Origin: Minisyncoccia bacterium
Lineage (GTDB): Bacteria > Patescibacteriota > Minisyncoccia > UBA6257 > 2-01-FULL-56-20
Reading direction: 5' to 3'
Length of the DNA stretch: 64,000 nucleotides
Assembly (NCBI GenBank): GCA_050008535.1
Contig: JBEKML010000001.1
Location: 327,050-391,049, forward strand
Position numbers and translations under genes: made by a program. Numbering within the stretch: position 1 is the stretch's first letter; the number at the start of each line of letters is the position of its first letter. Below are positions 4,817 to 62,917 of the stretch, in pieces. A model generated the notes under the pieces. The model did no database searches, was not told the origin of the DNA, and saw only the letters and a program-made list of their open reading frames with translations.

Positions 4817-4835
4817 TTTTGCGAAATAATTTCCC

Positions 4836-5165
4836 ATGCGTTTTTTCCGTTCCGAGCGGGTACAGGCGTTGATCCAGGAGGAGCTTGCGAAAATTATGGT
4901 GCGGGAAGTGGAATTTCCAGACGCACTTCTTACGATTACGAGCGTTGAAGTTGATAAGAAGCTGGACCACGCACGGGTCAATGTGAGCGTTATCCCGTCT
5001 TCCTCGGGGCCTGCGGCGCTCGCCGGACTCACGAAGCGTACGGGCCACCTTCAGCATCTTTTAATGAAAAAGATGAATATCAAACCCATGCCGCGTATCG
5101 CGTTTGCGCTTGATCGCGGCCCCGAAAATGCCGCGGCGGTTGAAAAAGCGCTGTTAAAAAAGTAA
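4836..5165 (+). CDS. rbfA: ribosome-binding factor A
   Basis: Lies immediately downstream of infB (conserved synteny). Size and sequence are RbfA-like (ALIQEELAKIMVREVEFP...VSVIP). Confidence 0.8.
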   Translation: MRFFRSERVQALIQEELAKIMVREVEFPDALLTITSVEVDKKLDHARVNVSVIPSSSGPAALAGLTKRTGHLQHLLMKKMNIKPMPRIAFALDRGPENAAAVEKALLKK

Positions 5166-7408: not shown

Positions 7409-8569
7409 ATGCTTGGAAAAGGACTTGAATCGCTTATACCACAGAAGGGGAATGGGGCCGGCGCTGCCGGATCGGACGGCGTTTCGTCGCAGCCGCCGGC
7501 GTCCGAACCCGAGGTGCAGCGCGAGGAACAGCGTAGTGAACCACATGAAGAGTCTTATGGGGGAGGTACATTGCAGCAGCCGCCGCCGCCGCAAATTGTT
7601 TCCGTGCCGCCCATGATGCCACCTGTTGTATTGTCGCCCGTGACAACGCCCGCCGCGACTGCCGCGAAAGTGTTTGAAGATCGGCGCCAGGACAAAACCG
7701 GCAAACCAGAGGAGATACAGTCTGTTTTCCATATTGAGATAGACAAGATCAAGCCGAACCCGACCCAGCCGCGGCGGAATTTTGACGAAGGGGGGCTCCG
7801 CGACCTTGCGCATTCCATCCGCGAGTTTGGATTTTTGCAGCCGCTTGTGGTTTCGCGGGTTGAAAAGGAAACAATAGATGGCGTGGGCGTCGAATATCAA
7901 TTGATCGCCGGCGAGCGGCGGCTCATGGCTGCGAAGATGCTGGGGCTTGCGACGGTGCCGGCCATTGTGCGGAATGTGGACCTTGAGCGCGAGAAATTGG
8001 AGCTCGCGGTGATCGAGAATATCCAGCGTGAGAATTTGAATCCAATAGAGGCTGCGCGCGCATTCCAGCGATTACAGGAAGAATTCCGTATGACCCAGCG
8101 CGAGATCGCGGCGAAGCTCGGCAAATCCCGCGAGGTCGTGGCGAACGCCGTCCGGCTGCTTGATCTGCCGGAAGAGATCCGGGTGGCGGTAGAGAAGGGC
8201 GATCTTTCGGAAAGCAGCGCGCGCATGCTCTTGGCAATCGGCGATCCGGGCGCGCAGAAACGCCTCTTTGAGGATATCGTGCAAAATCGGCTTACGACGC
8301 GGGATGTGAAGGAGCGTGTGCAGCAGTTCAGCGCGAGCACGGGCACGGGCGTGGCCGGAGCTCACGGGCACCGCCGCGGGCGCCCGCCGAAGAGCGCGGA
8401 AGCGCCGCTGCCTACGGAACTCCGCGCGATGCAGGAATCGCTTTCAAGCGACCTCGGTGCGCCCGTGGAGATTCATAAGGGCGCGAATACCGGGCGCATC
8501 ACGATCACCTTCTATTCCGAAGAGGAACTGGAAAATATCTTGCGGAAACTGGGAAAGGAGCGATTCTAG
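7409..8569 (+). CDS. parB: chromosome partitioning protein ParB/Spo0J with Pro-rich N-terminal extension
   Basis: ParB box GFLQPLVV...IAGERRLMAAKMLGL and an HTH region. The first roughly 100 aa are low-complexity Pro/Gln-rich. The ATG at 7409 follows a TTG at 7403. Confidence 0.85.
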   Translation: MLGKGLESLIPQKGNGAGAAGSDGVSSQPPASEPEVQREEQRSEPHEESYGGGTLQQPPPPQIVSVPPMMPPVVLSPVTTPAATAAKVFEDRRQDKTGKPEEIQSVFHIEIDKIKPNPTQPRRNFDEGGLRDLAHSIREFGFLQPLVVSRVEKETIDGVGVEYQLIAGERRLMAAKMLGLATVPAIVRNVDLEREKLELAVIENIQRENLNPIEAARAFQRLQEEFRMTQREIAAKLGKSREVVANAVRLLDLPEEIRVAVEKGDLSESSARMLLAIGDPGAQKRLFEDIVQNRLTTRDVKERVQQFSASTGTGVAGAHGHRRGRPPKSAEAPLPTELRAMQESLSSDLGAPVEIHKGANTGRITITFYSEEELENILRKLGKERF

Positions 8570-8576
8570 GCGGTTC

Positions 8577-10274
8577 TTACGCGAACTTGTAGCTTATTTC
8601 CCTCACCTCTTTTATTTTCTTCAGCTTCACCACAAGCTTTTCAATCTTTATTTTATCCGTTGTGGAGACCTCGATGTGATAGAACTGGAAGCGCCCGCCC
8701 TTCGGATGGTCGGTATTGAAGTGCATGATGGTGAAGTGCTGGCGGGCGATCGCGGTCGAAATGTCTTTAATGAGTCCCACGCGCGTTTCGACGGTGATTT
8801 TGAGTTCGGTGTGCGTAGGCGCCTTGGCGGTTTGCGCAAATGCATTCTTTTCGCGGAGGGCGAGCTTGATGTGGCCGCGTGCAATGTCTGTTTTTACGAA
8901 TCGGAGCCAATCCTCGGAGGGCTTCTTCCCTTTTTGGACGATGATCTCCACGACATCGCCCGACCGCAGTGGGTGATCGAGCGGCGTGAGCGTGCCGTTT
9001 ATTTTTGCGCCCGCGCAGGAATTCCCGACTATGGAATGGATATGGTAGGCAAAGTCCACCGGCGTCGCTCCCCGGGGAAGATCAATCACATCGCCGCGCG
9101 GCGTTACGGCGAAGATCCGGTCCCTGAAGAAATCGATCTTCATTGCGCGGATGAGCTCTTCCGGGTCTTTTTCTTTTCCAAAAAAGCGTTCCTGCCAATT
9201 CTTCAATTGTTGCACCCACGTGATCTCTTCCGCCATTTTTTTCCCGGAGATCCGTTCGCCACGGCGGTTTTGATCATAGAGCCAGTGGGCGGCCACGCCG
9301 AATTCGTTCTCATCATGCATCTCTTTCGTGCGGATCTGGAACTCTATTGTCTTGTCGCCAGGGCCGATCACCGTTGTATGCAAGCTGCGGTAACCGTTCG
9401 GTTTCGGCATGGCGATGTAATCCTTGATGCGGCGGGGGACGGGCGGCCACGCTTCATGGATCACGCCCAAGGCCGCATAGCACTCCGGGATCGTTTCCAT
9501 GATCACGCGCATGGCGACGAGGTCGTGGATCTTCCCTATGTCCATGTCGCGCCGGAGCAATTTTTTATACAAGCTCGCATAGCGTTTGGCGCGGATCTCG
9601 ATGTCGTGCGGCTTGAGGTCGTGTTCCTCAAGCAGTTTCTTCACCTGCGGCTTCATTTTCTCAAGATAGGCAAGCCGCGATTGGTATTGTTCTTTTGTGG
9701 TTGCGAGGAGCCAGCGGTATTCCTGCGGATGGAGGTAAGGAAAAGCGAGATCTTCCAATTCGCCGCTCAAGTCATGCATGCCAAGGCGGTAGGCGAGCGG
9801 CGCATAGATCTCGTCGGTTTCCATCGCGACCCGTTTCTGCTTCACGGGCGGGAGCGCTTGGAGTGTTCGCATGTTGTGCAGGCGGTCGGCGAGCTTGATC
9901 AAGACCACGCGGAGGTCTTCCGAGATCGCAAGGATCATTTTCCGGAGATTTTCCACTTTGTTCTCCGCTCCGCGGTATTTGATGCGGCCGAGTTTTGTCA
10001 CGCCGTCCACGAGGAACGCGATCTCTTCGCCGAATTCTTTTTTGACCGTTTCGAGCGGCACGCTGGTGTCCTCGACCGTATCGTGCAAAAGTCCTGCGGC
10101 GATCGTGGCTTCGTCAAGATGCCAATCATTGAGGGTCCCCGCGGTCGCGAGCGGATGATTGAGATACGGCTCGCCGGTCTTCCGCTTTTGGTCCGCATGC
10201 GCCTTCTCTGCGAGAGCGTACGCTTTCGCAATAATGCCGGTCGGATTCTGTTTGACGAGTTCTTTTATTGTCAC
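8577..10274 (-). CDS. bifunctional (p)ppGpp synthetase/hydrolase RelA/SpoT homolog (short, 565 aa)
   Basis: HD hydrolase motif HDTVEDT. Synthetase block RVIMETIPECYAALGVIHEAWPPVPRRIKDYIAMPKPNGYRSLHTTVIGP. A TGS-like region follows. The C-terminal regulatory region is shortened. Confidence 0.85.
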   Translation of the reverse strand: MTIKELVKQNPTGIIAKAYALAEKAHADQKRKTGEPYLNHPLATAGTLNDWHLDEATIAAGLLHDTVEDTSVPLETVKKEFGEEIAFLVDGVTKLGRIKYRGAENKVENLRKMILAISEDLRVVLIKLADRLHNMRTLQALPPVKQKRVAMETDEIYAPLAYRLGMHDLSGELEDLAFPYLHPQEYRWLLATTKEQYQSRLAYLEKMKPQVKKLLEEHDLKPHDIEIRAKRYASLYKKLLRRDMDIGKIHDLVAMRVIMETIPECYAALGVIHEAWPPVPRRIKDYIAMPKPNGYRSLHTTVIGPGDKTIEFQIRTKEMHDENEFGVAAHWLYDQNRRGERISGKKMAEEITWVQQLKNWQERFFGKEKDPEELIRAMKIDFFRDRIFAVTPRGDVIDLPRGATPVDFAYHIHSIVGNSCAGAKINGTLTPLDHPLRSGDVVEIIVQKGKKPSEDWLRFVKTDIARGHIKLALREKNAFAQTAKAPTHTELKITVETRVGLIKDISTAIARQHFTIMHFNTDHPKGGRFQFYHIEVSTTDKIKIEKLVVKLKKIKEVREISYKFA

Positions 10275-10396
10275 CTTCTCATCTTATCTCCGAAAGAAAC
10301 GATTAGGCAGGGATTGACGAAACGAAGACGGATATGGTATAGTATTCCTAGTCTCGGGGGCCCATGAGGCCGCCGAACAAACGGAGATCTTCTCAT

Positions 10397-10900
10397 ATGA
10401 GCACTAGAAAGATCGTGGTAACCGCCTGCGGTTTAAGTCTAATAGGCGGCATTCTGGGTTTGGCGGTGCTATTTTTCTTGTCCGCGACGCGCGCCGTCGT
10501 TCCCGCATATTATTGTGGGCTTGTCGCTCTTTCTCTCTGCGCGGTAGCTGCGATGACCTTCTGCCTTGATAAGATTATGCTCGCCGCGCTGGAGGAGAGC
10601 TTTGGCAAGGAGGTTGTCATCGCGCTCAGGTTGAACGAGATCGAGCTCTGCCGGGCGGAAATCAACAAAATCCTCCGCCGACTCGAGGCGGAATGTCGCA
10701 AAGTGAAAATGGAGCTGGCGGCATTCCGCGCTAGCACCCACACATTCAAGTTTGGCACCATTCAGTGCGACCGCCTGCAAGCGTTGGTGGACGATCTCGA
10801 ATTCACTAACAACTCTCTTCGGACCGCGAGGAGTGCGGCGAGATACGTCGGTGTCGCCAGCGTGCGTAGGCAGCTTCGCATGAGGCCGCTCCAGCTCTAG
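10397..10900 (+). CDS. hypothetical membrane protein (167 aa)
   Basis: ATG at 10397 (MSTRKIVV). Two hydrophobic helices followed by a coiled-coil-like region. No motif recognised. Confidence 0.4.
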   Translation: MSTRKIVVTACGLSLIGGILGLAVLFFLSATRAVVPAYYCGLVALSLCAVAAMTFCLDKIMLAALEESFGKEVVIALRLNEIELCRAEINKILRRLEAECRKVKMELAAFRASTHTFKFGTIQCDRLQALVDDLEFTNNSLRTARSAARYVGVASVRRQLRMRPLQL

Positions 10901-44287: not shown

Positions 44288-44490
44288 TGATTCTTAAGAG
44301 CGTCAGAGCCACGCGAATTCGCCCGGAGATCCGGGATCGTTCTGCAAATTGACTCTTAACGCTCTATTCTTGTGCTATGTTTATGTAAGGCGACCTACTT
44401 CTCCTCTGCTTCTCCGCCGGGAAATGCCGGCAAAACGAAACCTACTAAGAACACTTACATCTCTTGTATTATACCCTATATGCCCCAAAT

Positions 44491-45366
44491 ATGCAAATGG
44501 CAATGACCACCCGGCGTTTTAGGGCCATTATATGGGCATATTATCGCCGTGCGGGGCGGAATATGCCCTGGCGGCGGACGCGCGATCCGTATCGCATTGT
44601 GGTTTCGGAAATTATGCTCCAGCAGACGCAAGTTGCGCGCGTGATGAAATTTTATCCAATTTTCATCAAAAAATTTCCTGATTTTCGGGCACTTGCACGC
44701 GCGCGGACGGCGGACGTGCTCCGCGCGTGGCAGGGGATGGGATATAACCGCCGCGCGCTCGCGCTTCAGCGGCTCGCAAAAATTATTTTAGAAAAATATA
44801 ATGGCCGGTTGCCGTGCGAGCGCGCGGCGCTCACAGCGTTGCCTGGAGTGGGGAAGGCCACTGCGGGCGCCATCCGCGCATTTGCGTGGAACGAGCCGGA
44901 GGTTTTCGTTGAAACGAATATCCGCCGAGTTTTCATCCATTTTTTCTTCCCGGTCCGCTCCGGGCGTGCGGGGCGTGCGCGGAAGGTAACCGACGACGAA
45001 ATAATGCGTTATATCAAACGCACCCTGCCGCAAAAGAATGCGCGCGAATGGTACTGGGCGCTCATGGATTACGGAGCAATGCTTGGAACGGCCGCAAGTC
45101 GGGTTCTCATGAGAAGCGGCCGCGCTATAGGCCGAAATCCGAACCGAAACAGCGCCCATTATAAGAAGCAATCGCGGTTCTCGGGTTCGGATCGCGAATT
45201 GCGCGGAAAGATATTGCGCTTCTTATTGCAGAGAAAAAAAGTTTCCCGTGAAGCTCTTGTAAAAGAAACGAAAAAGCCCGCCGTAAGGGTCCGAAAAATC
45301 ATCGCGGCACTGGAACGGGAACGATTTATAGAGAGAAAGGGGCGTTTTGTATCTATTTCGCACTGA
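44491..45366 (+). CDS. HhH-GPD base-excision DNA glycosylase (MutY/Nth-like)
   Basis: MutY-like N-terminus (PWRRTRDPYRIVVSEIMLQQTQV) and HhH-GPD motif LPGVGKATAGAIRAFAWNEP. ATG at 44491 (the ORF opens at the TTG at 44464). No obvious C-terminal 4Cys cluster. Confidence 0.7.
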   Translation: MQMAMTTRRFRAIIWAYYRRAGRNMPWRRTRDPYRIVVSEIMLQQTQVARVMKFYPIFIKKFPDFRALARARTADVLRAWQGMGYNRRALALQRLAKIILEKYNGRLPCERAALTALPGVGKATAGAIRAFAWNEPEVFVETNIRRVFIHFFFPVRSGRAGRARKVTDDEIMRYIKRTLPQKNAREWYWALMDYGAMLGTAASRVLMRSGRAIGRNPNRNSAHYKKQSRFSGSDRELRGKILRFLLQRKKVSREALVKETKKPAVRVRKIIAALERERFIERKGRFVSISH

Positions 45367-50657: not shown

Positions 50658-51953
50658 ATGGCTAAGGGCAGGTTCTATTTTGACCATGCCGCGACGACGC
50701 CGCTTGATCCCGCAGTGCTGCGCGCGATGAAACCGTATTTTACGGATGATTTTGGCAATCCTTCCAACCTGTATGGCTTCGGGCGCAAGGCGAAAGCGGC
50801 CATCGCCGCGGCGGCGAAGAAAATAAGCGCTGCGCTTGGATGCGCCCCATCGGAATTTATTTTTACGGGCTCCGCGACCGAATCGGATAATATGGCGATC
50901 GCGGGCGTCGCGCGGGCGAACCGACGGACTGGCGGAAACGGCGCGGCGGGCGGCGCGGGCAAGATCATCGTTTCAAACGTGGAACACAAAGGCATCCTTT
51001 CCGTCTGCGACGCGCTTCGCGAAGAAGGATTTGAAATTGAATATTTGAAGGTGGGCCGCGACGGATTGGTAAATCCGCGCGACCTCACAAAAATGCTGGG
51101 CGAAAAAACCATTTTGGTTTCCGTAACGTATGCCGACAGCGAGACCGGCACGATCCAACCGATCGCGGAACTTGCAAAGGTGATCAAGAAATTCCGCGCC
51201 AAAACAAAGAGCGCGCTGCCATATTTCCATACTGATGCGAGCCAGGCGGCGGCATATTTGGACATCAACGTTCAGAAATTGGGGGTTGATCTCCTCACGC
51301 TCTCGGCGCACAAGCTCTACGGGCCGAAGGGCGTGGGCGGGCTCTACGTGCGGCGCGGCGTAAGGATGGTGCCGATCATCTATGGGGGCGGCCAGCAGGA
51401 CCGGCTTCGCTCGGGCACGGAGAACGTCCCTGCGATCGTCGGTTTCGGCGAGGCGGTGGCGCTCGCAGCAAAACATCGCAAAACCGAGGCGGCGCGCGTG
51501 AAAAACCTGCGCGACGCGCTCCAAAAAGGCATTTCTAAAAAGATCCCGAAAGTGGTCCTGAACGGCCATCCAACGAAGCGCCTCCCGAACTTTTTGAACA
51601 TCTCCATTTTGGACATTGAGGGCGAGGCGCTGCTTTTGTATCTTGATGAGCTGGGGATCATGGTGAACACCGGCTCCGCCTGCAATTCGGAGAGTTTGGA
51701 GCCGTCGTACGTACTCATGGCGCTCGGCAACCCGTATGAATATGCGCATGGCAGCGCCCGCTTCACGCTTGGGAAGGGGACCACGCCCGCCGCCGTCAAT
51801 TATGTTCTAAAGCACCTGCCTGAAGTTGTGGTAAAATTGCGGAACATCTCGCCGCTCAATCTAAAACTCGGCGAGAAGAAGATAACGTCCCAGCCGAAGG
51901 CCTTTATCGGCGGCCAAACGCCGCACTTTTTGAGGAAAAAACAAAGGGGTTGA
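50658..51953 (+). CDS. cysteine desulfurase (NifS/IscS family)
   Basis: FYFDHAATTPLDPAV N-terminus, PLP-Lys region SAHKLYGPKGVG, catalytic Cys loop GSACNS. Confidence 0.85.
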   Translation: MAKGRFYFDHAATTPLDPAVLRAMKPYFTDDFGNPSNLYGFGRKAKAAIAAAAKKISAALGCAPSEFIFTGSATESDNMAIAGVARANRRTGGNGAAGGAGKIIVSNVEHKGILSVCDALREEGFEIEYLKVGRDGLVNPRDLTKMLGEKTILVSVTYADSETGTIQPIAELAKVIKKFRAKTKSALPYFHTDASQAAAYLDINVQKLGVDLLTLSAHKLYGPKGVGGLYVRRGVRMVPIIYGGGQQDRLRSGTENVPAIVGFGEAVALAAKHRKTEAARVKNLRDALQKGISKKIPKVVLNGHPTKRLPNFLNISILDIEGEALLLYLDELGIMVNTGSACNSESLEPSYVLMALGNPYEYAHGSARFTLGKGTTPAAVNYVLKHLPEVVVKLRNISPLNLKLGEKKITSQPKAFIGGQTPHFLRKKQRG

Positions 51954-51957
51954 AATT

Positions 51958-52530
51958 ATGAAATTTGACGAAGAAAGGTTAATACAAATTGCCAAGCCCT
52001 ATATTAAAAAAGGGCGGGCAGGCGATTGGGAGCATGCCCAGGCAGCGGTTGAATGGGTAAAGAAATTAGGGGCGGGGCGAGATGATTTGAATTTGCTTAT
52101 TTCTGCCGCCTACATACATGATATCGGTTGGTCGGGAATCGGCATGGGGAAAAAACTGGATTTAAACGGGGTACTTGAATTTGGTCCTCAAGCAAACAAA
52201 AATTCTCAAGCACTGGTTTCTAAAGTTCTATCTAGTTTGGATTTCAGTGGGTCAGAAATTGAAACGGCAAATCGCCTGGTCGCAGCGGCCGACAAGCATT
52301 ACGCCGAAAAGGAGGATGAAGCCATAATTGTGGACGCAGATAATTTAAGCAAGCTAACAATGGAACAACTCCGAGAGAAATATGAGCCAAAAGAATTTTT
52401 GAAGCTTATAGATCGCTGGGAGGCCGAGATGCCGAAAAGAATAAAAACCGAAATCGGGAAAAACACGTATCCCAAAGCCTTAAAGGATTTAAGGGAGCAA
52501 ATCAACAAAAATGCCAACGAAAAGATCTAA
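51958..52530 (+). CDS. HD-domain protein (putative phosphohydrolase)
   Basis: H...HD motif (AAYIHDIGW), with a preceding His in EHAQAA. Inserted inside the Fe-S cluster operon. Confidence 0.5.
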   Translation: MKFDEERLIQIAKPYIKKGRAGDWEHAQAAVEWVKKLGAGRDDLNLLISAAYIHDIGWSGIGMGKKLDLNGVLEFGPQANKNSQALVSKVLSSLDFSGSEIETANRLVAAADKHYAEKEDEAIIVDADNLSKLTMEQLREKYEPKEFLKLIDRWEAEMPKRIKTEIGKNTYPKALKDLREQINKNANEKI

Positions 52531-53194
52531 GCCGGATGTGGTGAACCGATTCACGGGCGGAAGCTGGGCGTATTCAAACATAGTAAAAAACCACTTCTTC
52601 AACCCGCGGAATTTGCTGTGGAAGATGCCGGATAAAAAAGAGAGCAAGAGATTTGACGCGGAGGGGATCGTGGGGAGCCCTGCCTGCGGCGACGTCATGC
52701 GCGTATGGCTCAAAATTGACCCGAAAACGGAGAGGATAAAGGAATTTAAATGGCGGACGTTCGGATGCGCGAGCGCGGTCGCCGCCACCTCCATGCTTTC
52801 CGTGATGGTGACGGAAAAAGGCGGGATGAAAATAGCGAAGGCGCTCGCGATTAGGCCGCAGGACATCATGAAGCGCCTGGGCGGATTGCCGGACCGGAAG
52901 GTGCATTGCTCGGTTCTGGGCGATAAAGCACTGCGCTCGGCGATCAACGATTGGTTCAAAAAACGCGGAAAATTTGATAGAATTCTTACGGAGGGCGCGC
53001 GCATCATTGATCCGAACACAAAAGTGACCGAAGCGGACATTGAGGAAGCGGTGGTTGAGGGCGCGATAACCCTGGACGCCGTCCAGAAACGGACAAAGGT
53101 CGGCGTGGGCTACAAAGAATGCCTTCCGCAGGTGGAGGAATTGATCCGGTTCTATCGCGAAAAATATTATGGCACGGACCGCCGTAGAAAATAA
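52511..53194 (+). CDS. Fe-S cluster scaffold protein (IscU/NifU N-terminal type) with C-terminal extension
   Basis: NHFFNPRN and three scaffold Cys (GSPACGD, FGCASA, HCSVL). Confidence 0.75.
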   Translation: MPTKRSKPDVVNRFTGGSWAYSNIVKNHFFNPRNLLWKMPDKKESKRFDAEGIVGSPACGDVMRVWLKIDPKTERIKEFKWRTFGCASAVAATSMLSVMVTEKGGMKIAKALAIRPQDIMKRLGGLPDRKVHCSVLGDKALRSAINDWFKKRGKFDRILTEGARIIDPNTKVTEADIEEAVVEGAITLDAVQKRTKVGVGYKECLPQVEELIRFYREKYYGTDRRRK

Positions 53195-54927: not shown

Positions 54928-55125
54928 CGGCTCAACTATGAAAACGGAGAGCGGTTGACAAGAAAATCAAAAAATGTAAAGTGGGATTTTACATCAGTGC
55001 TGGACGTCTATCTGCGGACCTACGCCAAGTATCGGAAAAGTGACCACGGAAATACATTCCGCTATTAATTGGTGCCGCCGCGGGAAATCCTTCAGTGTAT
55101 TGATTCCTCCTCCTTTTTAAGGGTA

Positions 55126-55180
55126 TTGACTATTTTGTAAATATGCCCTATCCTTACAAATAGGTCGTGTTCTATATAAA
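55126..55180 (+). promoter_or_regulatory. putative promoter with overlapping palindromic operator upstream of the island cassette
   Basis: TTGACT at 55126-55131, then TATCCT / TATATAAA as candidate -10 elements. Palindrome TTGTAA-N13-TTACAA at 55135-55159. Confidence 0.3.
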
Positions 55181-55197
55181 TTATTAGCCCATTTAAT

Positions 55198-55410
55198 ATG
55201 GAAAATAAAAAGGATAGGTTTAAGCGTTTGGCTACTGCAAGAACCAATGGGGTTTTGAGGTCGCTTAAAGTGCTTGGCAATTGTGCCAACAGGAGTGCCT
55301 ATGATTACAGCGAAGAGGAAGTTAATAAGATTTTTTCGGAAATTGAACGTCGTGTCCGGGAGATAAAGGCGAAATTTCATTTCGGCAAAAATAAGGAATT
55401 TAAACTGTAA
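55198..55410 (+). CDS. hypothetical small basic protein (70 aa), first gene of the island cassette
   Basis: AT-rich ORF 14 nt upstream of the GHKL gene. No motif recognised; could be a regulator. Confidence 0.4.
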   Translation: MENKKDRFKRLATARTNGVLRSLKVLGNCANRSAYDYSEEEVNKIFSEIERRVREIKAKFHFGKNKEFKL

Positions 55411-55423
55411 ATCTACCGCATCA

Positions 55424-57421
55424 ATGAATCCAACTATTTATGCCGGTCGGCAGTTGCGAAATGACGAAAAGAACCTGAAGGCGATCGCCGATGGCTATGA
55501 GGTAAAACTTGGTCATAAATATTGGTTGGCGGAAGCGCTACAAAAAGATGCGATTCAAAATGGATGGGACGCTGGACATGGGAAGGAATGGAGTATGCGT
55601 TTTGAATTGAAAGGTGCCCAAGCTAGCTTTTTAATGATTCAAGATTCTTGTACTAGCGGGCTAAACGGAACTATATGGAAAGATCAGGAGGAATTGACAT
55701 CGATCTTGGAGAACGGAGATCGGACCGAAAACCTGGCGCATTTTTTGAGTTCCGATTTTAGCACAAAAACAGCGGAAAGCGGCGGAAAACGAGGAAGGGG
55801 TAAGTCCATATTCCTTTTTGCTTCGCAAAATTTGATATTTTATTTTGACTCACAGAGAGCGTCTTCTCGCGATTACGTCGCCGGAGCAATTTTCATAGAT
55901 TCTGACAAGGGAGCTAAGGTGGAAATGACAAGTGGCGATGCTGCTACGAAATACATGAAAGAGAAAACCGGAGAACACTATTCGCCCATTAAGACCAGCG
56001 GCACGCGTATTTTTATCAAGAACCCTCGGGAGGAGGTTGTCGTGGCGATCCGTGATGGCTCCATGATAAATTTCATCGAGAAAAACTGGTGGGAGATAAT
56101 AAAAAAATACGGCGCTCACATCACAGTATGCGATGGCACAGACACGAAGCAGGCGCAGGTCCCGATGTGGTATCGTGAAGACCTTTGTAAAGAAAAAGGG
56201 TTGGAACCGAAGGAATATCCGAACCTTAAGCTATCTTCCGGCGACAATAAATATCGGATTAAAAGAGTTTTTCTCATTTACAACCCAATGGGAGATACCC
56301 CGGAATCGCTCGTAGGCATCTCCATCCAACGAAAGGGGATGAGCATTGAGAGGAGGTCAACAGAAGCGCTGGTCAAGGAAGATGGCATGAGCAAGGTCTA
56401 TGGGTGGGTGGAGATGGAGCCGGAGTTGGAACATGCCATGTATGATCTCGAGGATGTTGAGCATCTTGGTTTTATTTGGACCAAAAAGCCAGCTAAAGAT
56501 TTGTTGGATTTGATAAAAATTCAGATACGAGATTTTGCGAAGGAAGTTAAATTGATCGAGAGCGAGCTGTCAAAGGAACATAAGGCCCATAAGCAAATCG
56601 AAGATGACATTGCAAAGAAGGTAAATAATTTTTTAAAAAACATCGGCTTCTCCGGGTTGGCTCTCACAAAGAGAAAAAGAACGGGAAAGAAAAGGATAGG
56701 AGAAATACCATTGAGGATATCGCTCGCAGATTTTAAATTGGCAGGAGGAAGCCGCCGCGTTAACTACGGAGAAACAATTAATGCGATTGCTGTAGTTGTA
56801 AATGAATTGGATATCTCCCTTCACGCCATCCATAGGACCTGGATTACGGATGAAGGAGGAAGAGTGGCAAAGATAAAAGAGGAGGAGATAGATTTGCATA
56901 AAGGTATTTCGCGGGCGCAGGGATGGGAACGAATGAAAGTTTCGAAGGAGGAGTTTCCTCCGGGTGATTACTCTTTCAAGTCAAAACTCACCCTCTTAGA
57001 AGATACCGACAAAGAACTACCTCGAATTGGAAGACTTGAGAAGGGAAAAGAAATTATTGTCTCAACTGCTTTTTCCGTAGAAAAAGATCCAAAAGCGCAA
57101 GGGTTTATTAAATTCGAACCGATCGTTGATAAGAACAAAGAGCGTTATATCACCACAAGACCGGAGGCCGGCGTTCTGGTCGTGGAATACAACACTCAGC
57201 ATCCGTATATCAGCAATCTTATGCCGACTGAACGCGCTGCTGATTTGGGAAGATTTCTTCTTGAGACAGGGATCATCATTGCGTTCAATGAAGTTATGGC
57301 GGAGGACATTTCTTCTGATAAGCCAAGGGTCTTTACGGACGTCAATGATGATTACGATATAACTAAGATTTTGCCCCGCGTCATGGAAGAGGTGAGTAAA
57401 TTTATGTGGCAATATCAATGA
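55424..57421 (+). CDS. GHKL/Bergerat-fold ATPase (MORC/MutL/Hsp90-like HATPase) with about 470-aa unknown C-terminal region
   Basis: All four Bergerat motifs in order: N-box DAIQNGWDAG (D42,N46,D49,A50), G1 IQDSCTSGLNG, G2 ESGGKRGRGKSIFLF (GxxGxGKS), motif IV SGTRIFI. No similarity to histidine-kinase dimerisation or MutL C-terminal domains was noticed. Confidence 0.6.
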   Translation: MNPTIYAGRQLRNDEKNLKAIADGYEVKLGHKYWLAEALQKDAIQNGWDAGHGKEWSMRFELKGAQASFLMIQDSCTSGLNGTIWKDQEELTSILENGDRTENLAHFLSSDFSTKTAESGGKRGRGKSIFLFASQNLIFYFDSQRASSRDYVAGAIFIDSDKGAKVEMTSGDAATKYMKEKTGEHYSPIKTSGTRIFIKNPREEVVVAIRDGSMINFIEKNWWEIIKKYGAHITVCDGTDTKQAQVPMWYREDLCKEKGLEPKEYPNLKLSSGDNKYRIKRVFLIYNPMGDTPESLVGISIQRKGMSIERRSTEALVKEDGMSKVYGWVEMEPELEHAMYDLEDVEHLGFIWTKKPAKDLLDLIKIQIRDFAKEVKLIESELSKEHKAHKQIEDDIAKKVNNFLKNIGFSGLALTKRKRTGKKRIGEIPLRISLADFKLAGGSRRVNYGETINAIAVVVNELDISLHAIHRTWITDEGGRVAKIKEEEIDLHKGISRAQGWERMKVSKEEFPPGDYSFKSKLTLLEDTDKELPRIGRLEKGKEIIVSTAFSVEKDPKAQGFIKFEPIVDKNKERYITTRPEAGVLVVEYNTQHPYISNLMPTERAADLGRFLLETGIIIAFNEVMAEDISSDKPRVFTDVNDDYDITKILPRVMEEVSKFMWQYQ

Positions 57422-58011
57422 ACATGGCTATCAAATTACGCAGAGGAGAAAATTTTTTCTATGCCCCGGTGACTGGTTTGCTTGATAAAAAAGAGCAGAA
57501 GCGCGCGGACGAAATATACACAAGCGCTAAGAATGCCGTAGAAAAATTAAACAAAACGAGGCGGAGCGGAACGATAGATATTCTTGCCGGGTGGCACCTG
57601 AGAGGTGTTTTAATAAATCAGATTATCCAAAAATTTGGGATAACCGAAACTGAAAAAAAGTATTTTTGGATGATGCTTTATGATGTCTCGGGAATGACGG
57701 TGCCGGACCATATTCGGAAAAACGATTTTCATGTGGCCAGCATTTTAGCAAACTATCCATTAAAGAGATTACAGGAAATCGGGGCTTGGAGTATGTGGCG
57801 AGAGATTATTGGGTCTACTAAGATTGGAAACGATGATAGGGTGGCGCGATGGGTGGTGGACTACATTGTCGAAAAAAAGATAAAAACCAGAGATCAGGCC
57901 AGGCCTTTATTGATGGCGGTTCGAAACAGGCTGAAGAGGATTGATGCTTCTATCTTAAGTAGCGGAGAATTAGCGAATAAATTGCAAGAGGTCGTAATAA
58001 AAAACAATTGA
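57418..58011 (+). CDS. hypothetical protein (197 aa), translationally coupled to the GHKL ATPase
   Basis: Its ATG at 57418 overlaps the GHKL stop (ATGA). Predicted mostly helical. No motif recognised. Confidence 0.5.
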   Translation: MNMAIKLRRGENFFYAPVTGLLDKKEQKRADEIYTSAKNAVEKLNKTRRSGTIDILAGWHLRGVLINQIIQKFGITETEKKYFWMMLYDVSGMTVPDHIRKNDFHVASILANYPLKRLQEIGAWSMWREIIGSTKIGNDDRVARWVVDYIVEKKIKTRDQARPLLMAVRNRLKRIDASILSSGELANKLQEVVIKNN

Positions 58012-58019
58012 AATTATCC

Positions 58020-59132
58020 ATGGAAAGTTCAGCTAAAGAATGTCCCGTCTGCGGCAAGCCGCTGACCCAGGAAGAGTACGACAAGGCTCTTGGTATCTGG
58101 AAGGCCAAGCACGAAGAAATAAAGCATTTGGAAAAGGAGAGGGCCGATCTCAAGCAGCAGGCTGCTTCGCTGAAAAAAGAAAAGGCTGAAGCGCGACGTG
58201 CGGCCAAGCTTCTTATAGCAGAGCAGAAACGGAAATCTGTCGCCGAGCTACGCCAATCACGACTTTTAATGAAAGAGGTATTTAAGAAGCAGCTAGAAAA
58301 CAAAGTCGGCAAAGCGGTTGCCAGCACCAAGAACAAGATGGGACAGCTGAATCGGAGTTGGAAAATCGCCCTGGAGAAAAACGAGAAGCTCCAGCAGGAA
58401 ATCAAACGGCTAAAAGAACAGCGCGAAAAAGGGATTACTCCGCAGATCGAGGGATTACTTGAAGAAGACAAGCTCTTGGCAAAACTGAAGGAATTATATT
58501 GTCCGCCTGATCAGTTTGAGCATCCAGGCAAAGGTGGCGATATTATCCAGACCGTTATGGAGCAAGGCAAACCCGTAGGGAAAATCGTTTATGAGTGTAA
58601 AAAAGTAAGATCATTTAGTCAAAGCCACGTGAAACAGGCATCCGATGCACGCGAATCAAGGAAAGCAGATTTTGCAGTGCTCGTGACCAATGCATTTCCC
58701 GCCAAGAGACAATCCTATTTTGTTTCCAATACGGTATATGTTATTAGTCCCGTAAGCGTTGAAGCCGTAACTTATACGCTACGCGAATTTCTTGTCAGAA
58801 TAGCCTTGCTCCGATTGTCGAATGCGGCAAAAGAGAAAGCCGTCAATGAGATTTACAAATACATGTCCGGAAACGAATATAGCGATAAGGTTAACGGAAT
58901 GGCGTCCCAGCTCTTAACGCTCAGGGGTGATTTGAAATCAGAAATTAACTCGCATTGGCAGATATGGAAAAAGCGCTACGCATCCTATCAAACTCTCTTT
59001 GTGGATCTTGGCACTATAGATTCCCGGCTGAAGAGTTTGCTGGCGCTTGGAGACGGTGACCGAGAAACGCCGAAGCTAGCCGCAGGACAACAAAAAACTT
59101 ATCCTCCACTTGAGGAACTCGAAAGGAAATAA
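58020..59132 (+). CDS. Zn-ribbon / coiled-coil / PD-(D/E)xK nuclease-fold protein
   Basis: N-terminal CPVCGKP. About 130 aa of Lys/Glu-rich heptad-like coiled coil. C-terminal restriction-endonuclease-like core FEHPGKGGDIIQTV...GKIVYECKKV (E, D, ExK motifs). Starts 8 nt after the upstream stop (alternative TTG at 58008 would overlap the stop). Confidence 0.55.
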   Translation: MESSAKECPVCGKPLTQEEYDKALGIWKAKHEEIKHLEKERADLKQQAASLKKEKAEARRAAKLLIAEQKRKSVAELRQSRLLMKEVFKKQLENKVGKAVASTKNKMGQLNRSWKIALEKNEKLQQEIKRLKEQREKGITPQIEGLLEEDKLLAKLKELYCPPDQFEHPGKGGDIIQTVMEQGKPVGKIVYECKKVRSFSQSHVKQASDARESRKADFAVLVTNAFPAKRQSYFVSNTVYVISPVSVEAVTYTLREFLVRIALLRLSNAAKEKAVNEIYKYMSGNEYSDKVNGMASQLLTLRGDLKSEINSHWQIWKKRYASYQTLFVDLGTIDSRLKSLLALGDGDRETPKLAAGQQKTYPPLEELERK

Positions 59133-59189
59133 CTTCCTTCGGTCCACATAAAACAACCTATCCCGACTGTTTTTACCAGACATCCATTC

Positions 59190-60806
59190 ATGAGAATAAC
59201 GGAATTCAAAATTAAGAATTTTAAATGTATTGGCCCTGAACCAATCACTCTAGACTTCACGGAAGATATTCTTGTTCTTATTGGGCAAAATAATGTTGGA
59301 AAGTCATCAGTGCTAAGGGCCCTTGATTTCTACTTTTCAGGGACTAAGACATTGCCAGAAAAATACTTTTATAACCACCAGCATGACCAAGATCATGCCG
59401 TAGTCATTGAACTAAAATTTAGCGACCTTTCTAGTCAGGATAGGGTTCACCAAGCCGTATCGCCGTATATCTCTACCGATAATTCTTGGATTCTCAGAAA
59501 ATCTTACTATTACGATAGCGATGGTGGAGGTAAATGTGATTACGCCGCTATTGTTGATGGCGCAGAGAAGAAAAATCCAGCGGGCCTGACACAAAACTGC
59601 GACAATCTCTTTGTCGGCGACAAAATGCAAAAGATCTTTGTAGAGGCGGTAAAAGATGTGTCTGATGTGGTGGAGGGGAAAAGCAAATCAACATTTGGAC
59701 AGATATTTAGCATAATCCTTAAGAATGCAGTAGAGGCAACAAGTGAATATACATCACTACTTGATGCGCTCCGCGCATATCAAAATCTTTTCCGGGGCGC
59801 AGGCCAATTATCGCAGATTACGCAAGTGGAAAATACCATCAACGAAAGACTGGCAAGAATAATTAGCGCAAGCAGCAAAATAGATACGGAATCGCCGCAA
59901 GTAGAGAAATTTATGCCAGCACCAAAACTCCTAACAGACGACGGGAGAGGAATCGACATTGATCCTACCGAACAAGGCCATGGCTTACAGCGAGCTTTAA
60001 TATTTGTTTTATTAGAATTACTAGCGGAGACAACTAGTCCCATGACTAAAGAAGTAGGCCCTAGAAACTTATTAATGATTGAAGAACCTGAAATTTATAT
60101 GCATCCGCAAATGCTAAGGAAGATAGCTGATACTCTCTATGAAATTGCTTCACAAGGTAAGGCACAAGTGATCTGCACTACACACTCACCCATTTTCATC
60201 AGAATCGCAGAAAAACAGAAGGCGTTAGCCCGCTTTGTCAGAAAAGAAGATAATTCGCTTACCGTTTTTCAGCAAAAGACGGATATTTTCTCTGGAGCCG
60301 GAGCAACAGAATTAAAGAAACAACTACAAATGATTACCAACTTTGATCCCGCAGTGAACGAGTTATTCTTTGCGAGAAGGGTGGTGCTTTTAGAAGGAGA
60401 TACTGAACTTGCCGTATTTCGTGAGGCTCCAAACTTATTGTTCGCGGGGAACAAAAATAACCTCCGTGATTGTCGGGATACCACTGTTATCAACTGTAGG
60501 GGCAGAAACACCATCCCATTGTTTCAAGAGATTCTAAACCACTTTCAAATTCCTTACGTTGTCATTCACGATACCGAAGGAGAAGATAAGACCAGCGGTA
60601 TAAACGGTAAAATTCTTGGATTACTTGGCGGTGATGAATCAAAACGTAAAATGTTCAGTCCTAATATAGAAGATGGTTTAGGTATTACGGACAGAGGAGG
60701 CAATAAGTCAATCAAAGCCCTGGATCGTATCCAAGAATTGAATGGCCTCGGTCAATTAGAGGGGAAAATAGGAAGTTACATAAGATTCGCTTACAACATT
60801 CCATAG
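59190..60806 (+). CDS. OLD-family nuclease (N-terminal ABC-type ATPase + C-terminal Toprim), class-1-like standalone architecture
   Basis: Walker A GQNNVGKSS, Walker B/D-loop LLMIEEPEIYMHPQ, H-loop VICTTHSP. Toprim Glu VVLLEGDTELAVF and acidic cluster VVIHDTEGED. No adjacent UvrD-like helicase. Confidence 0.75.
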   Translation: MRITEFKIKNFKCIGPEPITLDFTEDILVLIGQNNVGKSSVLRALDFYFSGTKTLPEKYFYNHQHDQDHAVVIELKFSDLSSQDRVHQAVSPYISTDNSWILRKSYYYDSDGGGKCDYAAIVDGAEKKNPAGLTQNCDNLFVGDKMQKIFVEAVKDVSDVVEGKSKSTFGQIFSIILKNAVEATSEYTSLLDALRAYQNLFRGAGQLSQITQVENTINERLARIISASSKIDTESPQVEKFMPAPKLLTDDGRGIDIDPTEQGHGLQRALIFVLLELLAETTSPMTKEVGPRNLLMIEEPEIYMHPQMLRKIADTLYEIASQGKAQVICTTHSPIFIRIAEKQKALARFVRKEDNSLTVFQQKTDIFSGAGATELKKQLQMITNFDPAVNELFFARRVVLLEGDTELAVFREAPNLLFAGNKNNLRDCRDTTVINCRGRNTIPLFQEILNHFQIPYVVIHDTEGEDKTSGINGKILGLLGGDESKRKMFSPNIEDGLGITDRGGNKSIKALDRIQELNGLGQLEGKIGSYIRFAYNIP

Positions 60807-60826
60807 AATTTATCCTGGGCGCTGGA

Positions 60827-62917
60827 TTACCCGACCACCACCCGTGCATCCACGACCACCGCGCCGCGGTCGGTCGCCATCGCGGGGTTTAGGTCAATCG
60901 CTTGTATTTCGGGGTTCAGAAGCGCGAGGTGCGAGAGGGCGACGATGAGCTTTGTGAGTGCCCGCGCGTCAACGGGTTTTTCGCCGCGTGCGCCGCGGAG
61001 GAGCGATGCGCCTTTTATTTCGTCCATCATTTTGCGGGCATCGGCGTCGGCGACGGGCGCCACACGGAGCGCCACGTCGTGCATGGCTTCTACGAAGATG
61101 CCGCCGAAACCGAAGCTTATGACCGGTCCGAAGACGGGGTCGCGCTTCATGCCGATGATGATCTCTTTGCCTTTTGCCATGGGCTGCACGAGCATTCCTT
61201 GTATCACGGCGCGGGGCGCCTTGCGGCGGACGGCCTTCGCGATCTCGTCCCATGCGTCGCGCGCCGCCTTAGCGTCCGCGAGGTTCAATCGTACGCCGCC
61301 CACGTCCGTCTTGTGGCTTATTTCCCGCGAGATGACCTTCATTGCGAAGGGACCGGCGCCGAGTTCTTCCAAGATCGCATCAAGATCAATTTTTGCGCGC
61401 ACGAATTCGCCGCTTATTTCAATGCCGTATTTTTCGAGGAGTATGCGGGCGGCGGCGAAGTCCATGAGCGTTGCGGCGGACTTCAAAGCGGAGAGTTTTG
61501 GGGCGGCAGAGGGGGCGGCGGCCGGTTTCGCTTCCGCCTTTTTCCCGAACACCGCGAACGCGAGCGCGTCCAGCGCTCCGATCGCGTCATCCGGAAAATC
61601 AAAATTGACGAGATTGGCCTCGCGGAGCGCCCGCACGCCGTCCGCAACGGCTTCGCGGCCCATAAAGACCGGTATGACAAGCTTCTTTTTCCCGTAGGCC
61701 GCGAGGAGCCGCGCCGTGCCTGCGGCATCCGTCATCATCTGCGGCGTGAGGATAACAATAATTCCCTGGGCGGCTTTTTCCGCGCATAAAACTTTGAGCG
61801 CGCTTTCGTAGCGCGGGGGCAAGGCGTCGCCCAAAATGTCCACGGGGTTTCCGAGGGCCGCTATCGGCGGGAGCGCCTTTGCGAGTGCGCGCGTTGCGGC
61901 TTCGCTCAATTTTGCAAGCGAGAGCGACGAGGACAATTCCACGAGGTCCGCTGCGACGACCGACGGCCCGCCGCCGTTCGTGAGGATCGCGATCTCGCGC
62001 GGAGGTTTTTGGGTGTCCAGGGCGCCCGATGTGAGGCCAAGCTGGAGAAGCTTCGCCGTGTTATAAAATTCGCGGAGGGAGCCCACGGTCACGACGCCGC
62101 ATTCGCGGCAGGCTGCTTCAAAGACCGCGCTTTCCGGCGCGAGCGAGCCCGTGTGCGAAAGTGCCGCCGCGCTCCCGCGCGCGCTCCGGCCGGCCTTCAA
62201 AACAACAACGGGTTTTTTCTGCGTGATTTTCTTCGCGAGCGCCATGAATTTTTTCCCGTCGCTTACTTTTTCCAGATATAGCATGATCGCTTCCGTTTCT
62301 TTGTCTTTTGCGAGATATTCCAGAAATTCAATTTCCGTGAGCACGGCTTCGTTGCCCAAACTGATGAACTTTGAAAACCTCACGCCTTCCTTGTGCGCCC
62401 AGTCAAGCATCGCGGCGCCCAGGGCGCCCGATTGCGAAAGGAAAGCGATCGCGCCCGGCGCGGGCGTCTCCGCGGCCGCGAAAGAAGCGTTCAGCCCCGC
62501 GTGCGTGTCGATCGTGCCCAAGCAGTTCGGGCCGAGAAGCGCAACGTGGTAGCTCGCGGCCGTCATCCTGATCTTTTTCTCTAGTTCCTTGCCGGCGTCG
62601 CCCGCTTCCTTGAAGCCGGATGAGATGATGATGGCCGCGCCGACTTCTTTTTTGCCGCATTCCTCAAGCACCGCGGGCACGGCGAAAGCGGGGATGGCGA
62701 TCACGGCAAGGTCAACCTTGTCTTTTATTTCCGCTATTGACCTGTAGGCAGGCAGGCCGAGGATGACCCGCTCGGTGAGCGAAACGGGAAGTATTTTCCG
62801 CTTGTGCGCCCCGCCGTTTTTCAGATTGAAGACCAGCGAATAGCCGACTTTGTTTTTGTCGTTTGAGGCGCCGATGACCGCGACCGACTGCGGATCAAAG
62901 AATTTTTTGAGATCCAT
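60827..62917 (-). CDS. acetyl-CoA synthetase (ADP-forming), fused alpha/beta domains
   Basis: N-terminal CoA-binding Rossmann VAVIGASNDKNKVGY, succinyl-CoA-synthetase-like ligase domains, C-terminal ATP-grasp region. 696 aa. Confidence 0.75.
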   Translation of the reverse strand: MDLKKFFDPQSVAVIGASNDKNKVGYSLVFNLKNGGAHKRKILPVSLTERVILGLPAYRSIAEIKDKVDLAVIAIPAFAVPAVLEECGKKEVGAAIIISSGFKEAGDAGKELEKKIRMTAASYHVALLGPNCLGTIDTHAGLNASFAAAETPAPGAIAFLSQSGALGAAMLDWAHKEGVRFSKFISLGNEAVLTEIEFLEYLAKDKETEAIMLYLEKVSDGKKFMALAKKITQKKPVVVLKAGRSARGSAAALSHTGSLAPESAVFEAACRECGVVTVGSLREFYNTAKLLQLGLTSGALDTQKPPREIAILTNGGGPSVVAADLVELSSSLSLAKLSEAATRALAKALPPIAALGNPVDILGDALPPRYESALKVLCAEKAAQGIIVILTPQMMTDAAGTARLLAAYGKKKLVIPVFMGREAVADGVRALREANLVNFDFPDDAIGALDALAFAVFGKKAEAKPAAAPSAAPKLSALKSAATLMDFAAARILLEKYGIEISGEFVRAKIDLDAILEELGAGPFAMKVISREISHKTDVGGVRLNLADAKAARDAWDEIAKAVRRKAPRAVIQGMLVQPMAKGKEIIIGMKRDPVFGPVISFGFGGIFVEAMHDVALRVAPVADADARKMMDEIKGASLLRGARGEKPVDARALTKLIVALSHLALLNPEIQAIDLNPAMATDRGAVVVDARVVVG

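Follow-up and report, generated by a model that had tools for sequence, protein, structure and literature searches.

A divergent MORC-like GHKL+S5 ATPase with a dedicated helical partner, probable core of a paraMORC-like restriction or defence cassette in a Minisyncoccia bacterium

ATPases in which a GHKL domain is followed by an S5-fold domain make up the MORC and paraMORC families, and to our knowledge almost none of them has been studied experimentally, the exception being the Shedu-type paraMORC3 proteins. MORC and paraMORC ATPases have been described in restriction-modification (R-M) operons together with Dcm and Vsr (Iyer, Abhiman and Aravind 2008, PMC2292703), and were predicted in 2008 to be the engines of restriction-like systems (PMC2292703). 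Among them, paraMORC2 was found by PSI-BLAST from MORCs and is common in cyanobacteria and Gram-positives (PMC2292703). An anti-phage function has been shown experimentally for VcSduA, a GHKL-Shedu protein of the paraMORC3 type (PMC12137116). The present analysis concerns a stretch of 64,000 nucleotides (nt) from the genome of a Minisyncoccia bacterium (contig JBEKML010000001.1, positions 327,050 to 391,049 of the forward strand), referred to below as the window, and within it an open reading frame (ORF) of 665 amino acids (aa) at 55424-57421 (+), with an ATG start and a TGA stop at 57419-57421. The protein has the same sequence as NCBI entry MGC9968492.1 ('hypothetical protein ABSC29_02050 [Minisyncoccia bacterium]'), encoded on a 535-kb contig of a Patescibacteria/CPR metagenome-assembled genome, and for any member of its family all naming sources give 'hypothetical protein'. 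The ORF probably encodes the ATPase subunit of a conserved, unannotated, paraMORC-like restriction or defence cassette, in which an upstream accessory gene (for a 70-aa or an unrelated ~350-aa protein) and an obligate helical partner of ~200 aa would accompany the GHKL+S5 ATPase.

A preliminary description, made from the sequence alone, had interpreted the ORF as a MORC-like GHKL ATPase of the kind found in conflict systems and had called its Bergerat motifs complete. The interpretation is supported here: the ORF and the four motif strings are present as they had been quoted, and across 64 aligned homologues (24-79% identical) the key positions of the motifs vary little or not at all. Motif I reads Q40-K-D42-A-I-Q45-N46-x-W-D49-A50, with Q40, K41, D42, Q45, N46 and W48 in all 64 sequences, A50 in 62 and D49 in 55. 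D74, G79 and G82 of the G1 box (D74-x-(G/C)76-T-x-G79-L-x-G82) are likewise invariant, as are G121, G124, G126 and K127 of the G2 box (G121-x-R-G124-x-G126-K127) and the nearby F130. Motif IV is G193-T194-R195 (G193 in 64/64, T194 in 63/64), and R123 and R195 are near-invariant. This conservation is far beyond chance. GHKL motifs I-IV occur in canonical order, and the register D42-x2-Q45-N46-x2-D49-A50 matches exactly the E-x2-E-N-x2-D-A of MutL. The claim of completeness therefore stands for the order of the motifs and for their Asn and Gly residues, but not for the catalytic positions: the canonical general-base Glu, four residues before the Asn, is Asp42 in 64/64, and the second acidic position, directly before the Asn, is Gln45 in 64/64. 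At codon 76 (55649-55651) the window protein also departs from the expected G1 box, with Cys where 60 of the 64 relatives have Gly. Of the Lys-Ser pair in the G2 box that had been described as MORC-like, K127 is conserved throughout, but S128 occurs in 13/64 only.

A significant match to a GHKL profile had been set beforehand as a test of the assignment, and none was obtained. The window ATPase matched nothing in Pfam at E ≤ 10 except an unrelated DUF and nothing in NCBIfam; phmmer and a profile of the 64 sequences found no match among all PDB sequences; and when the family profile was compared by hhalign with MutL and HtpG of E. coli (MG1655), neither alignment was significant (probability 0.3%), although that with HtpG put G1 and G2 in register. 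HATPase_c_3 was touched by just three of the 64 relatives, with a best E-value of 0.019. Since all profile searches were negative, the GHKL assignment rests on predicted structure and motif conservation. The Bergerat alpha/beta-sandwich fold is present in the predicted structure and is followed by an S5-fold domain, as the preliminary description had suggested might be seen in an AlphaFold model; the DNA-binding domain that it had named as the other possibility was not seen as any known fold. The ATP lid (residues 110-130) has low confidence in the AlphaFold2 (AF2) model, which is usual for this element, and the rest of the domain fits the alpha/beta sandwich. A Foldseek search with the predicted structure gave TRAP1/Hsp90 as top matches. 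It is on this result, and on the lack of a recognisable DNA-binding domain, that one could build a housekeeping role as an Hsp90-like chaperone or another GHKL enzyme not acting on DNA, such as a kinase, which we regard as very improbable. In a further structural comparison, the scores were 24.0 for SMCHD1, 23.4 for MORC3, 21.6 and 19.6 for MORC2 and 18.9 for MutL, with TRAP1 (18.3) and Topo VI-B (17.4) lower, and the alignments covered 280-326 residues, corresponding to the Bergerat and S5/transducer domains. According to the model, this is a GHKL+S5 ATPase that has diverged strongly and that is structurally closest to the MORC/SMCHD1 group.

For the ATPase family, two weak similarities were found in PADLOC-DB v2. 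The sole match of the window ATPase was PDC-S06 (E 0.0069), which was rejected as a relative because the match is marginal and lies over the coiled-coil region, and the family is described as an AAA ATPase. PDC-M33A weakly matches nine of the 64 relatives (best 1.4e-6), and in one inspected case the match covers the G1-G2 region only.

Outside the ATP-binding domain, roughly 470 residues had been reported as lacking any recognisable similarity. This holds at the sequence level but not in structure, where ~140 aa form the S5/transducer domain, which is common to MORC, MutL, Hsp90 and topoisomerase ATPases and which the preliminary description had overlooked along with the 70-aa upstream gene and the two downstream nuclease genes in the low-GC (guanine plus cytosine) island (Table 1). 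The S5 domain holds a conserved strand-turn, G298-I-x-I-Q-R303-x-G-M306, and ends in the invariant motif E343-x2-E346-H347, of which E343 and H347 are found in 64/64. It is followed by a coiled-coil hairpin and a linker whose predicted local distance difference test (pLDDT) score falls below 50 at residues 412-425 (AF2); the Lys/Arg-rich composition of this linker would be compatible with a role in DNA binding. The beta-sandwich region beyond it probably comprises two sandwiches and carries the conserved stretches R445-V-N-Y-G and Y589-N-x2-H593-P. The C-terminal hairpin might hold the protein as a constitutive dimer. In the model of the ATPase, no fold of a nuclease, a helicase or a known DNA-binding type was seen. 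Homologues are nearly always 650-700 aa long. A subfamily of 770-850 aa has an extra ~120-180 aa (P0079; L076, 3180-5726; L043, 5947-8307); its members match the profile in two stretches with a break after about profile position 510-560, and the inserted domain is unannotated.

Table 1. Features of the cassette, of the ATPase and of the surrounding island (positions in the window)
Feature	Position	Strand	Details
Low-GC island	55000-60900 (5.9 kb)	.	42-45% GC vs 55-62% in the flanks; five co-directional genes
70-aa upstream protein, first cassette gene	55198-55410	+	predicted helical; ends 13 nt before ATPase start
Bergerat (GHKL) ATP-binding domain	55463-56053	+	residues ~14-210; motif invariance and predicted structure
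S5-fold transducer domain	56111-56488	+	residues ~230-355
Coiled-coil hairpin and linker	56492-56710	+	helices residues 357-406; disordered Lys/Arg-rich linker 407-429 (KRKRTGKKR)
Ig/FnIII-like beta-sandwich region	56711-57193	+	residues ~430-590
C-terminal helical hairpin	57203-57415	+	residues 594-664; helices 602-630 and 646-664, pLDDT 86-94 (AF2)
Partner, 195 aa	57424-58011	+	NCBI ABSC29_02055; N-terminal beta-hairpin, then all-helical domain
DUF2130 protein	58020-59132	+	Pfam PF09903, E 3e-22; ATG 8 nt past partner stop
OLD-family nuclease, last island gene	59190-60806	+	Pfam AAA_15 4e-41, OLD-like_TOPRIM 3e-14; PADLOC Old 1e-77

The most constant companion of the ATPase is the gene directly downstream. 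Loci were collected by exact-protein lookup (11) and from GTDB species representatives (75), which gave 81 non-redundant loci, and their ORFs were searched with hidden Markov models (HMMs) built from the family alignments. In all 70 loci that could be assessed, that is, those with an intact ATPase and enough downstream sequence, the partner gene directly adjoins the ATPase gene on the same strand; one of these 70 has a frameshifted ATPase. Its invariant residues are W57, G61, F102, W122, W125, D137, R139 and W143. The gene had been described as overlapping the ATPase stop and as encoding 201 aa. However, both statements go back to the GTG at 57406, which is no more than the first start codon met mechanically; the protein's conserved N-terminus, MAIK(L/I)RR, begins at the ATG at 57424, 2 nt past the ATPase TGA, and this N-terminus and the NCBI call both give 195 aa. 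The tight coupling of the two genes that the overlap had been taken to indicate is borne out. Among PADLOC models, only weak JetB matches were found, in five of the 70 partners. No nuclease-like fold is recognisable in either the ATPase or the partner.

The position upstream of the ATPase can be occupied by one of two protein families. Homologues of the 70-aa protein abut the ATPase on the same strand in 28/81 loci, from CPR (Candidate Phyla Radiation), Chloroflexota, Atribacteria, Bacteroidota, Thorarchaeota and one Bacillota isolate. No known domain is seen in this protein, which matches nothing in Pfam or PDB; it may act as a regulator or an adaptor. A protein of ~350 aa fills the same slot in 18/81 loci (for example L006, 6967-7998; L026, 4921-5907; L076, 2095-3162); it is mutually exclusive with the 70-aa protein, and Dcm is encoded in 16 of these 18 loci. 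The idea that the 70-aa protein is a fragment or homologue of the ~350-aa protein was rejected (hhalign probability 0.1%), as was the idea that the latter is a known nuclease, since neither Pfam nor PDB matched it and the sole feature to emerge was a possible winged helix at the C-terminus. At L001 (7416-7994), where the ATPase is 59% identical to that of the window, a single called gene of 192 aa encodes a DnaA C-terminal-like DNA-binding domain and, after it in the same frame, a homologue of the 70-aa protein. The gene may be an artefact of gene calling or a true fusion, in which case a role in DNA binding would be hinted at.

Flanking ORFs within 4 kb of the cassette were clustered and the clusters annotated with Pfam. 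A C5 cytosine methylase (PF00145) was identified in 41/81 loci, Vsr in 16/81 and an HhH-GPD glycosylase in 19/81; one or other of the two repair enzymes is present in 35 loci, in 34 of them together with the methylase. These genes occur on either side of the cassette and on either strand. A neighbourhood of this kind, with methylase and repair genes, characterises a module of the R-M type that works by cytosine methylation. It also bears on a different reading, in which the pair would not restrict foreign DNA but would assist very-short-patch or T:G mismatch repair in the manner of MutL, on behalf of the linked Dcm-Vsr or Dcm-glycosylase. We consider this quite improbable: Vsr and the glycosylase accompany any C5 methylase interchangeably, no Dcm, Vsr or glycosylase lies near the cassette in about half of the loci (among them that of the window and those of its whole CPR clade), and the window copy lies in an island of foreign composition with two nucleases. 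The remaining neighbours of the family also count against it: they comprise PIN/MazE toxin-antitoxin modules, an integrase and a serine recombinase, as well as ThsB-TIR, DUF4411/M78 and an ABC-3C CTD10 protein. At L013 a large serine recombinase (3385-5118) lies upstream of the cassette and an ABC-3C CTD10-domain protein (10010-10750) downstream of DUF2130, an indication that the L013 copy is carried by a mobile defence island. In L074, a locus from Woesearchaeota, the gene right after the partner encodes a PRTase-CE protein (3479-4405, E 4e-46). Among the annotated loci, none showed an SF2 helicase in tight linkage with the cassette; L006 has an Lhr-type helicase gene ~6 kb upstream.

In the window, the pair is followed by two nuclease genes. 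In its sequence, the DUF2130 protein combines a CPxC zinc ribbon with a coiled coil and a predicted PD-(D/E)xK nuclease domain (D174...E192-x-K194), and DUF2130 is listed in the PD-(D/E)XK superfamily (PMC3424549). It directly follows the partner in four of the 81 loci (the window, L001, L013 and L076), on the same strand and with gaps of 2-72 nt, and D174, E192 and K194 are invariant in all four copies. This makes it a candidate effector nuclease of the cassette variant found in the window. The OLD protein, an N-terminal ABC-type ATPase with a C-terminal Toprim domain, starts 57 nt after it. The order recurs in L076, from Omnitrophota, where the co-directional genes encode a 350-aa protein, an ATPase ~28% identical to that of the window, the partner, DUF2130, OLD (7738-9672) and Dcm. 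In this small sample, the recurrence of the DUF2130-OLD order speaks for a functional attachment of the nucleases and against their being neighbours by chance. We know of no such pairing among the described contexts of OLD (stand-alone, with a UvrD-type helicase, retron-linked or in PARIS), and the two genes may be a module in their own right.

Such an independence of the nucleases is the substance of the strongest rival explanation, according to which ATPase, partner and small protein are self-contained, DUF2130 and OLD belong to a separate neighbouring defence system and the effector lies within the pair, for example in the Trp-rich helical partner or in the beta-sandwich/helical C-terminus of the ATPase. 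DUF2130 is lacking in 77 of the 81 loci, many of which have only the pair between housekeeping genes, and a gap of 57 nt separates it from OLD in the window. OLD nucleases are defence proteins in their own right and defence genes cluster in islands, both of which fit this explanation. Nevertheless, DUF2130 stands right after the partner in four loci whose ATPases have diverged (28-59% identical) and whose genes further downstream differ, the DUF2130-OLD pair lies between partner and Dcm in L076, and neither ATPase nor partner has a nuclease-like fold. A self-contained system is therefore a possibility to be kept in mind but an unlikely one, and a paraMORC-like cassette, to which nucleases are attached in some lineages, is the reading that is preferred here.

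Several observations weigh against this preferred reading. The link to GHKL ATPases was obtained by no sequence-profile method, and the evidence for the fold is a prediction. Neither Dcm nor Vsr is encoded anywhere in the 64-kb window, no methylase lies within 4 kb of the window copy or of its closest CPR relatives, and many loci consist of only the ATPase and partner between housekeeping genes. DUF2130 is confined to 4/81 loci, and together with OLD it could constitute an independent neighbouring system, because defence genes cluster anyway. Searches by tblastn of plasmids (PLSDB), phages (INPHARED) and IMG/VR viral contigs found no copy of the family. Finally, the Asp/Gln active site of every member may make hydrolysis slow or absent. 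A canonical Glu four residues before the Asn and a second acidic residue directly before it are found in the lineages of MutL, GyrB and MORC, the second sharing the general-base role in MutL and GyrB, and substitutions in these two proteins resembling Asp/Gln lower kcat about tenfold (PMC13614785). One carboxylate (D42) is kept, and hydrolysis is thus still possible, but probably altered. The active site predicts slow hydrolysis, suited to a timing switch rather than a motor.

The same residues suggest a further alternative, namely that the protein is a non-hydrolysing or very slow ATP switch, a MORC-like clamp that silences or compacts unmarked DNA without cutting it and for which the nucleases are optional. 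It draws on the invariant Asp and Gln, which resemble the kcat-lowering substitutions, on the closest structural matches (SMCHD1 and MORC2/3), which are DNA-compacting silencers, and on the core pair, which has no recognisable nuclease fold. We judge it improbable all the same: the carboxylate of D42 is kept, and one carboxylate suffices for hydrolysis (PMC13614785); a nuclease directly follows the partner in four loci; and the DNA-binding domain that such a clamp would use is only putative, the proposal as a whole being inferential. More speculatively, the pair could be a nuclease-free, methylation-guided prokaryotic silencer of the MORC/SMCHD1 kind that traps or compacts unmarked DNA, with nucleases added in some lineages. 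It could even survive from the lineage ancestral to eukaryotic MORC-type proteins, given its presence in Asgard archaea, Bathyarchaeia and DPANN and its nearest structural relatives; the proposal is again quite improbable.

For a paraMORC-like cassette, the following mechanism may be envisaged. By analogy with MutL, topoisomerases, Hsp90 and MORC, ATP binding would close the lid and dimerise the N-terminal domains, the S5 domain would sense the gamma-phosphate and the C-terminal helices may hold a constitutive dimer, the dimer acting as an ATP-operated clamp or conformational switch on DNA. Judging from their context, the partner and the upstream protein would supply DNA or target recognition, or regulation. 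In about half of the family, the linked C5 methyltransferase, with Vsr or an HhH-GPD T:G repair enzyme, would mark self DNA, so that the complex would act on unmarked foreign DNA. In the methylase-less variant of the window, cleavage would be delegated to DUF2130 and OLD, encoded in one low-GC operon. This scheme would have the ATPase hydrolyse ATP, dimerise, bind DNA and interact with its partner; the roles given in it to a component that discriminates self from non-self and to an effector are likewise putative.

The window cassette was probably acquired horizontally, and lies in an island whose successive genes are separated by gaps of 13, 2, 8 and 57 nt. According to Pfam, it is bordered by a gene for a pyridine-nucleotide-disulphide oxidoreductase on one side and a convergent gene for an ADP-forming acyl-CoA synthetase on the other. 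At the island edges (55000-60900) no tRNA, integrase or att-like direct repeats were found, and a scan for promoters and terminators performed no better than on shuffled sequence. Within the family as a whole, 81 word-indexed homologues were found, and 707 clusters at 50% identity (E ≤ 1e-3) among 1.84 billion representatives. In bacteria they are spread over CPR, Chloroflexota, Atribacteria, Ignavibacteria, Planctomycetota, Gammaproteobacteria and one cultured member of Bacillota, Paraliobacillus quinghaiensis YIM-C158 (L043, NZ_QJSH01000019.1); in archaea over Asgard, Bathyarchaeia and DPANN. This patchy distribution fits horizontal transfer.

Three further genes of the window were noted. 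An HhH-GPD glycosylase-like ORF (44464-45366, +), the only HhH-GPD match in the window, lies 10 kb from the island and matches the HMM of the cassette-linked glycosylases with E 4e-52; given this distance and its high-GC housekeeping context, it is probably the genome's own Nth/MutY-type enzyme. The gene at 50658-51953 (+) matches DndA/SspA of PADLOC (~1e-133), an assignment that was rejected as it encodes a class-V aminotransferase beside NifU (52511-53194) and is thus an IscS/NifS cysteine desulfurase with a housekeeping role. Annotated automatically, it would be wrongly called a defence gene. A 190-aa HD-domain protein (51958-52530, +), with a weak HD-CE match (E 0.0027), is encoded ~3 kb upstream of the island.

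Searches of Pfam, NCBIfam, PADLOC and PDB sequences do not reveal the family, yet it is strongly conserved, at the level of ~700 clusters of 50% identity. It is found mainly in CPR, Chloroflexota and archaea (Asgard lineages among them); defence catalogues have been compiled from cultured genomes, and little is therefore charted of the immune repertoires of such hosts. If the proposed function is correct, the family would add a multi-protein system to the defence and R-M catalogue and would show how a GHKL clamp couples to separately encoded nucleases. The invariant Asp/Gln variant offers a natural test of the two-carboxylate mechanism that has been proposed for GHKL hydrolysis.

Comparison with the prokaryotic MORC and paraMORC1-5 families shows that they share with the present family an N-terminal GHKL domain that carries all four ATP-binding motifs and precedes an S5 domain, a patchy bacterial and archaeal distribution resembling that left by horizontal gene transfer, neighbourhoods with C5 methylase and Vsr, and possibly the use of a nuclease from a separate gene. 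In contrast to them, the present family is undetected by HATPase_c_3 and every other GHKL profile and has the catalytic Glu replaced by Asp. The MORC-specific S5 motif GhXhhpXXRhl is absent from all 64 members (regular-expression search), the corresponding strand-turn being G-I-A-I-Q-R-x-G-M-x-I, and the family is for this reason not MORC sensu stricto. The 200-aa helical partner, the 70-aa and 350-aa upstream proteins and the Ig-like beta-sandwich C-terminus have not been described for any paraMORC family. The present family occurs mostly in uncultivated lineages, which the databases of 2008 lacked. The invariant E343-x3-H347 at the end of the S5 domain recalls the ExxxH of paraMORC2, a likeness drawn from the description of that motif only; identity with paraMORC2 is made doubtful by the invisibility of the family to GHKL profiles and its near absence from cultured organisms.

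Similar distinctions apply to the individual systems that come closest. The protein lacks the CW, chromo-like, UBL and SMC-hinge domains of eukaryotic MORC2, MORC3 and SMCHD1, differs from them in the acidic residues of motif I, and is prokaryotic and operon-encoded with a dedicated partner. The paraMORC-derived HEF_HK/Response_reg_2 pairs (Bellieny-Rabelo et al. 2021, PMC8011034) likewise consist of a large GHKL protein and a small adjacent partner and, like the present family, are repeatedly found beside C5 methylase and Vsr genes. However, no Pfam family, HEF_HK, HATPase_c and Response_reg_2 included, matches the ATPase or the partner here; a second HATPase_c domain at the C-terminus is lacking; and the partner is all-helical rather than receiver-like. 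With the paraMORC3 Shedu protein VcSduA the present system has in common a GHKL ATPase, a clamp-like middle domain and a PD-(D/E)xK nuclease, but here the nuclease is a separate gene present in 4/81 loci and is of the DUF2130 rather than the DUF4263 type, the C-terminus of the ATPase consists of a beta-sandwich and helices, and there is a dedicated partner, required by synteny. As no DUF4263 nuclease is fused to it, the family is not paraMORC3/Shedu type I-D. Compared with E. coli MutL, from which the hhalign result also sets it apart, it has no C-terminal dimerisation/endonuclease domain, and it is sporadic and island-encoded rather than a core repair gene.

Taken against the paraMORC radiation as a whole, the family has a predicted GHKL+S5 architecture without the MORC motif, and R-M-type neighbours in part of the loci, the window copy having no methylase but a PD-(D/E)xK nuclease and OLD. 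We rate the family as one that works like paraMORC: a new 'dark' multi-protein cassette built around a MORC-like ATPase, worthwhile in itself and not categorically new.

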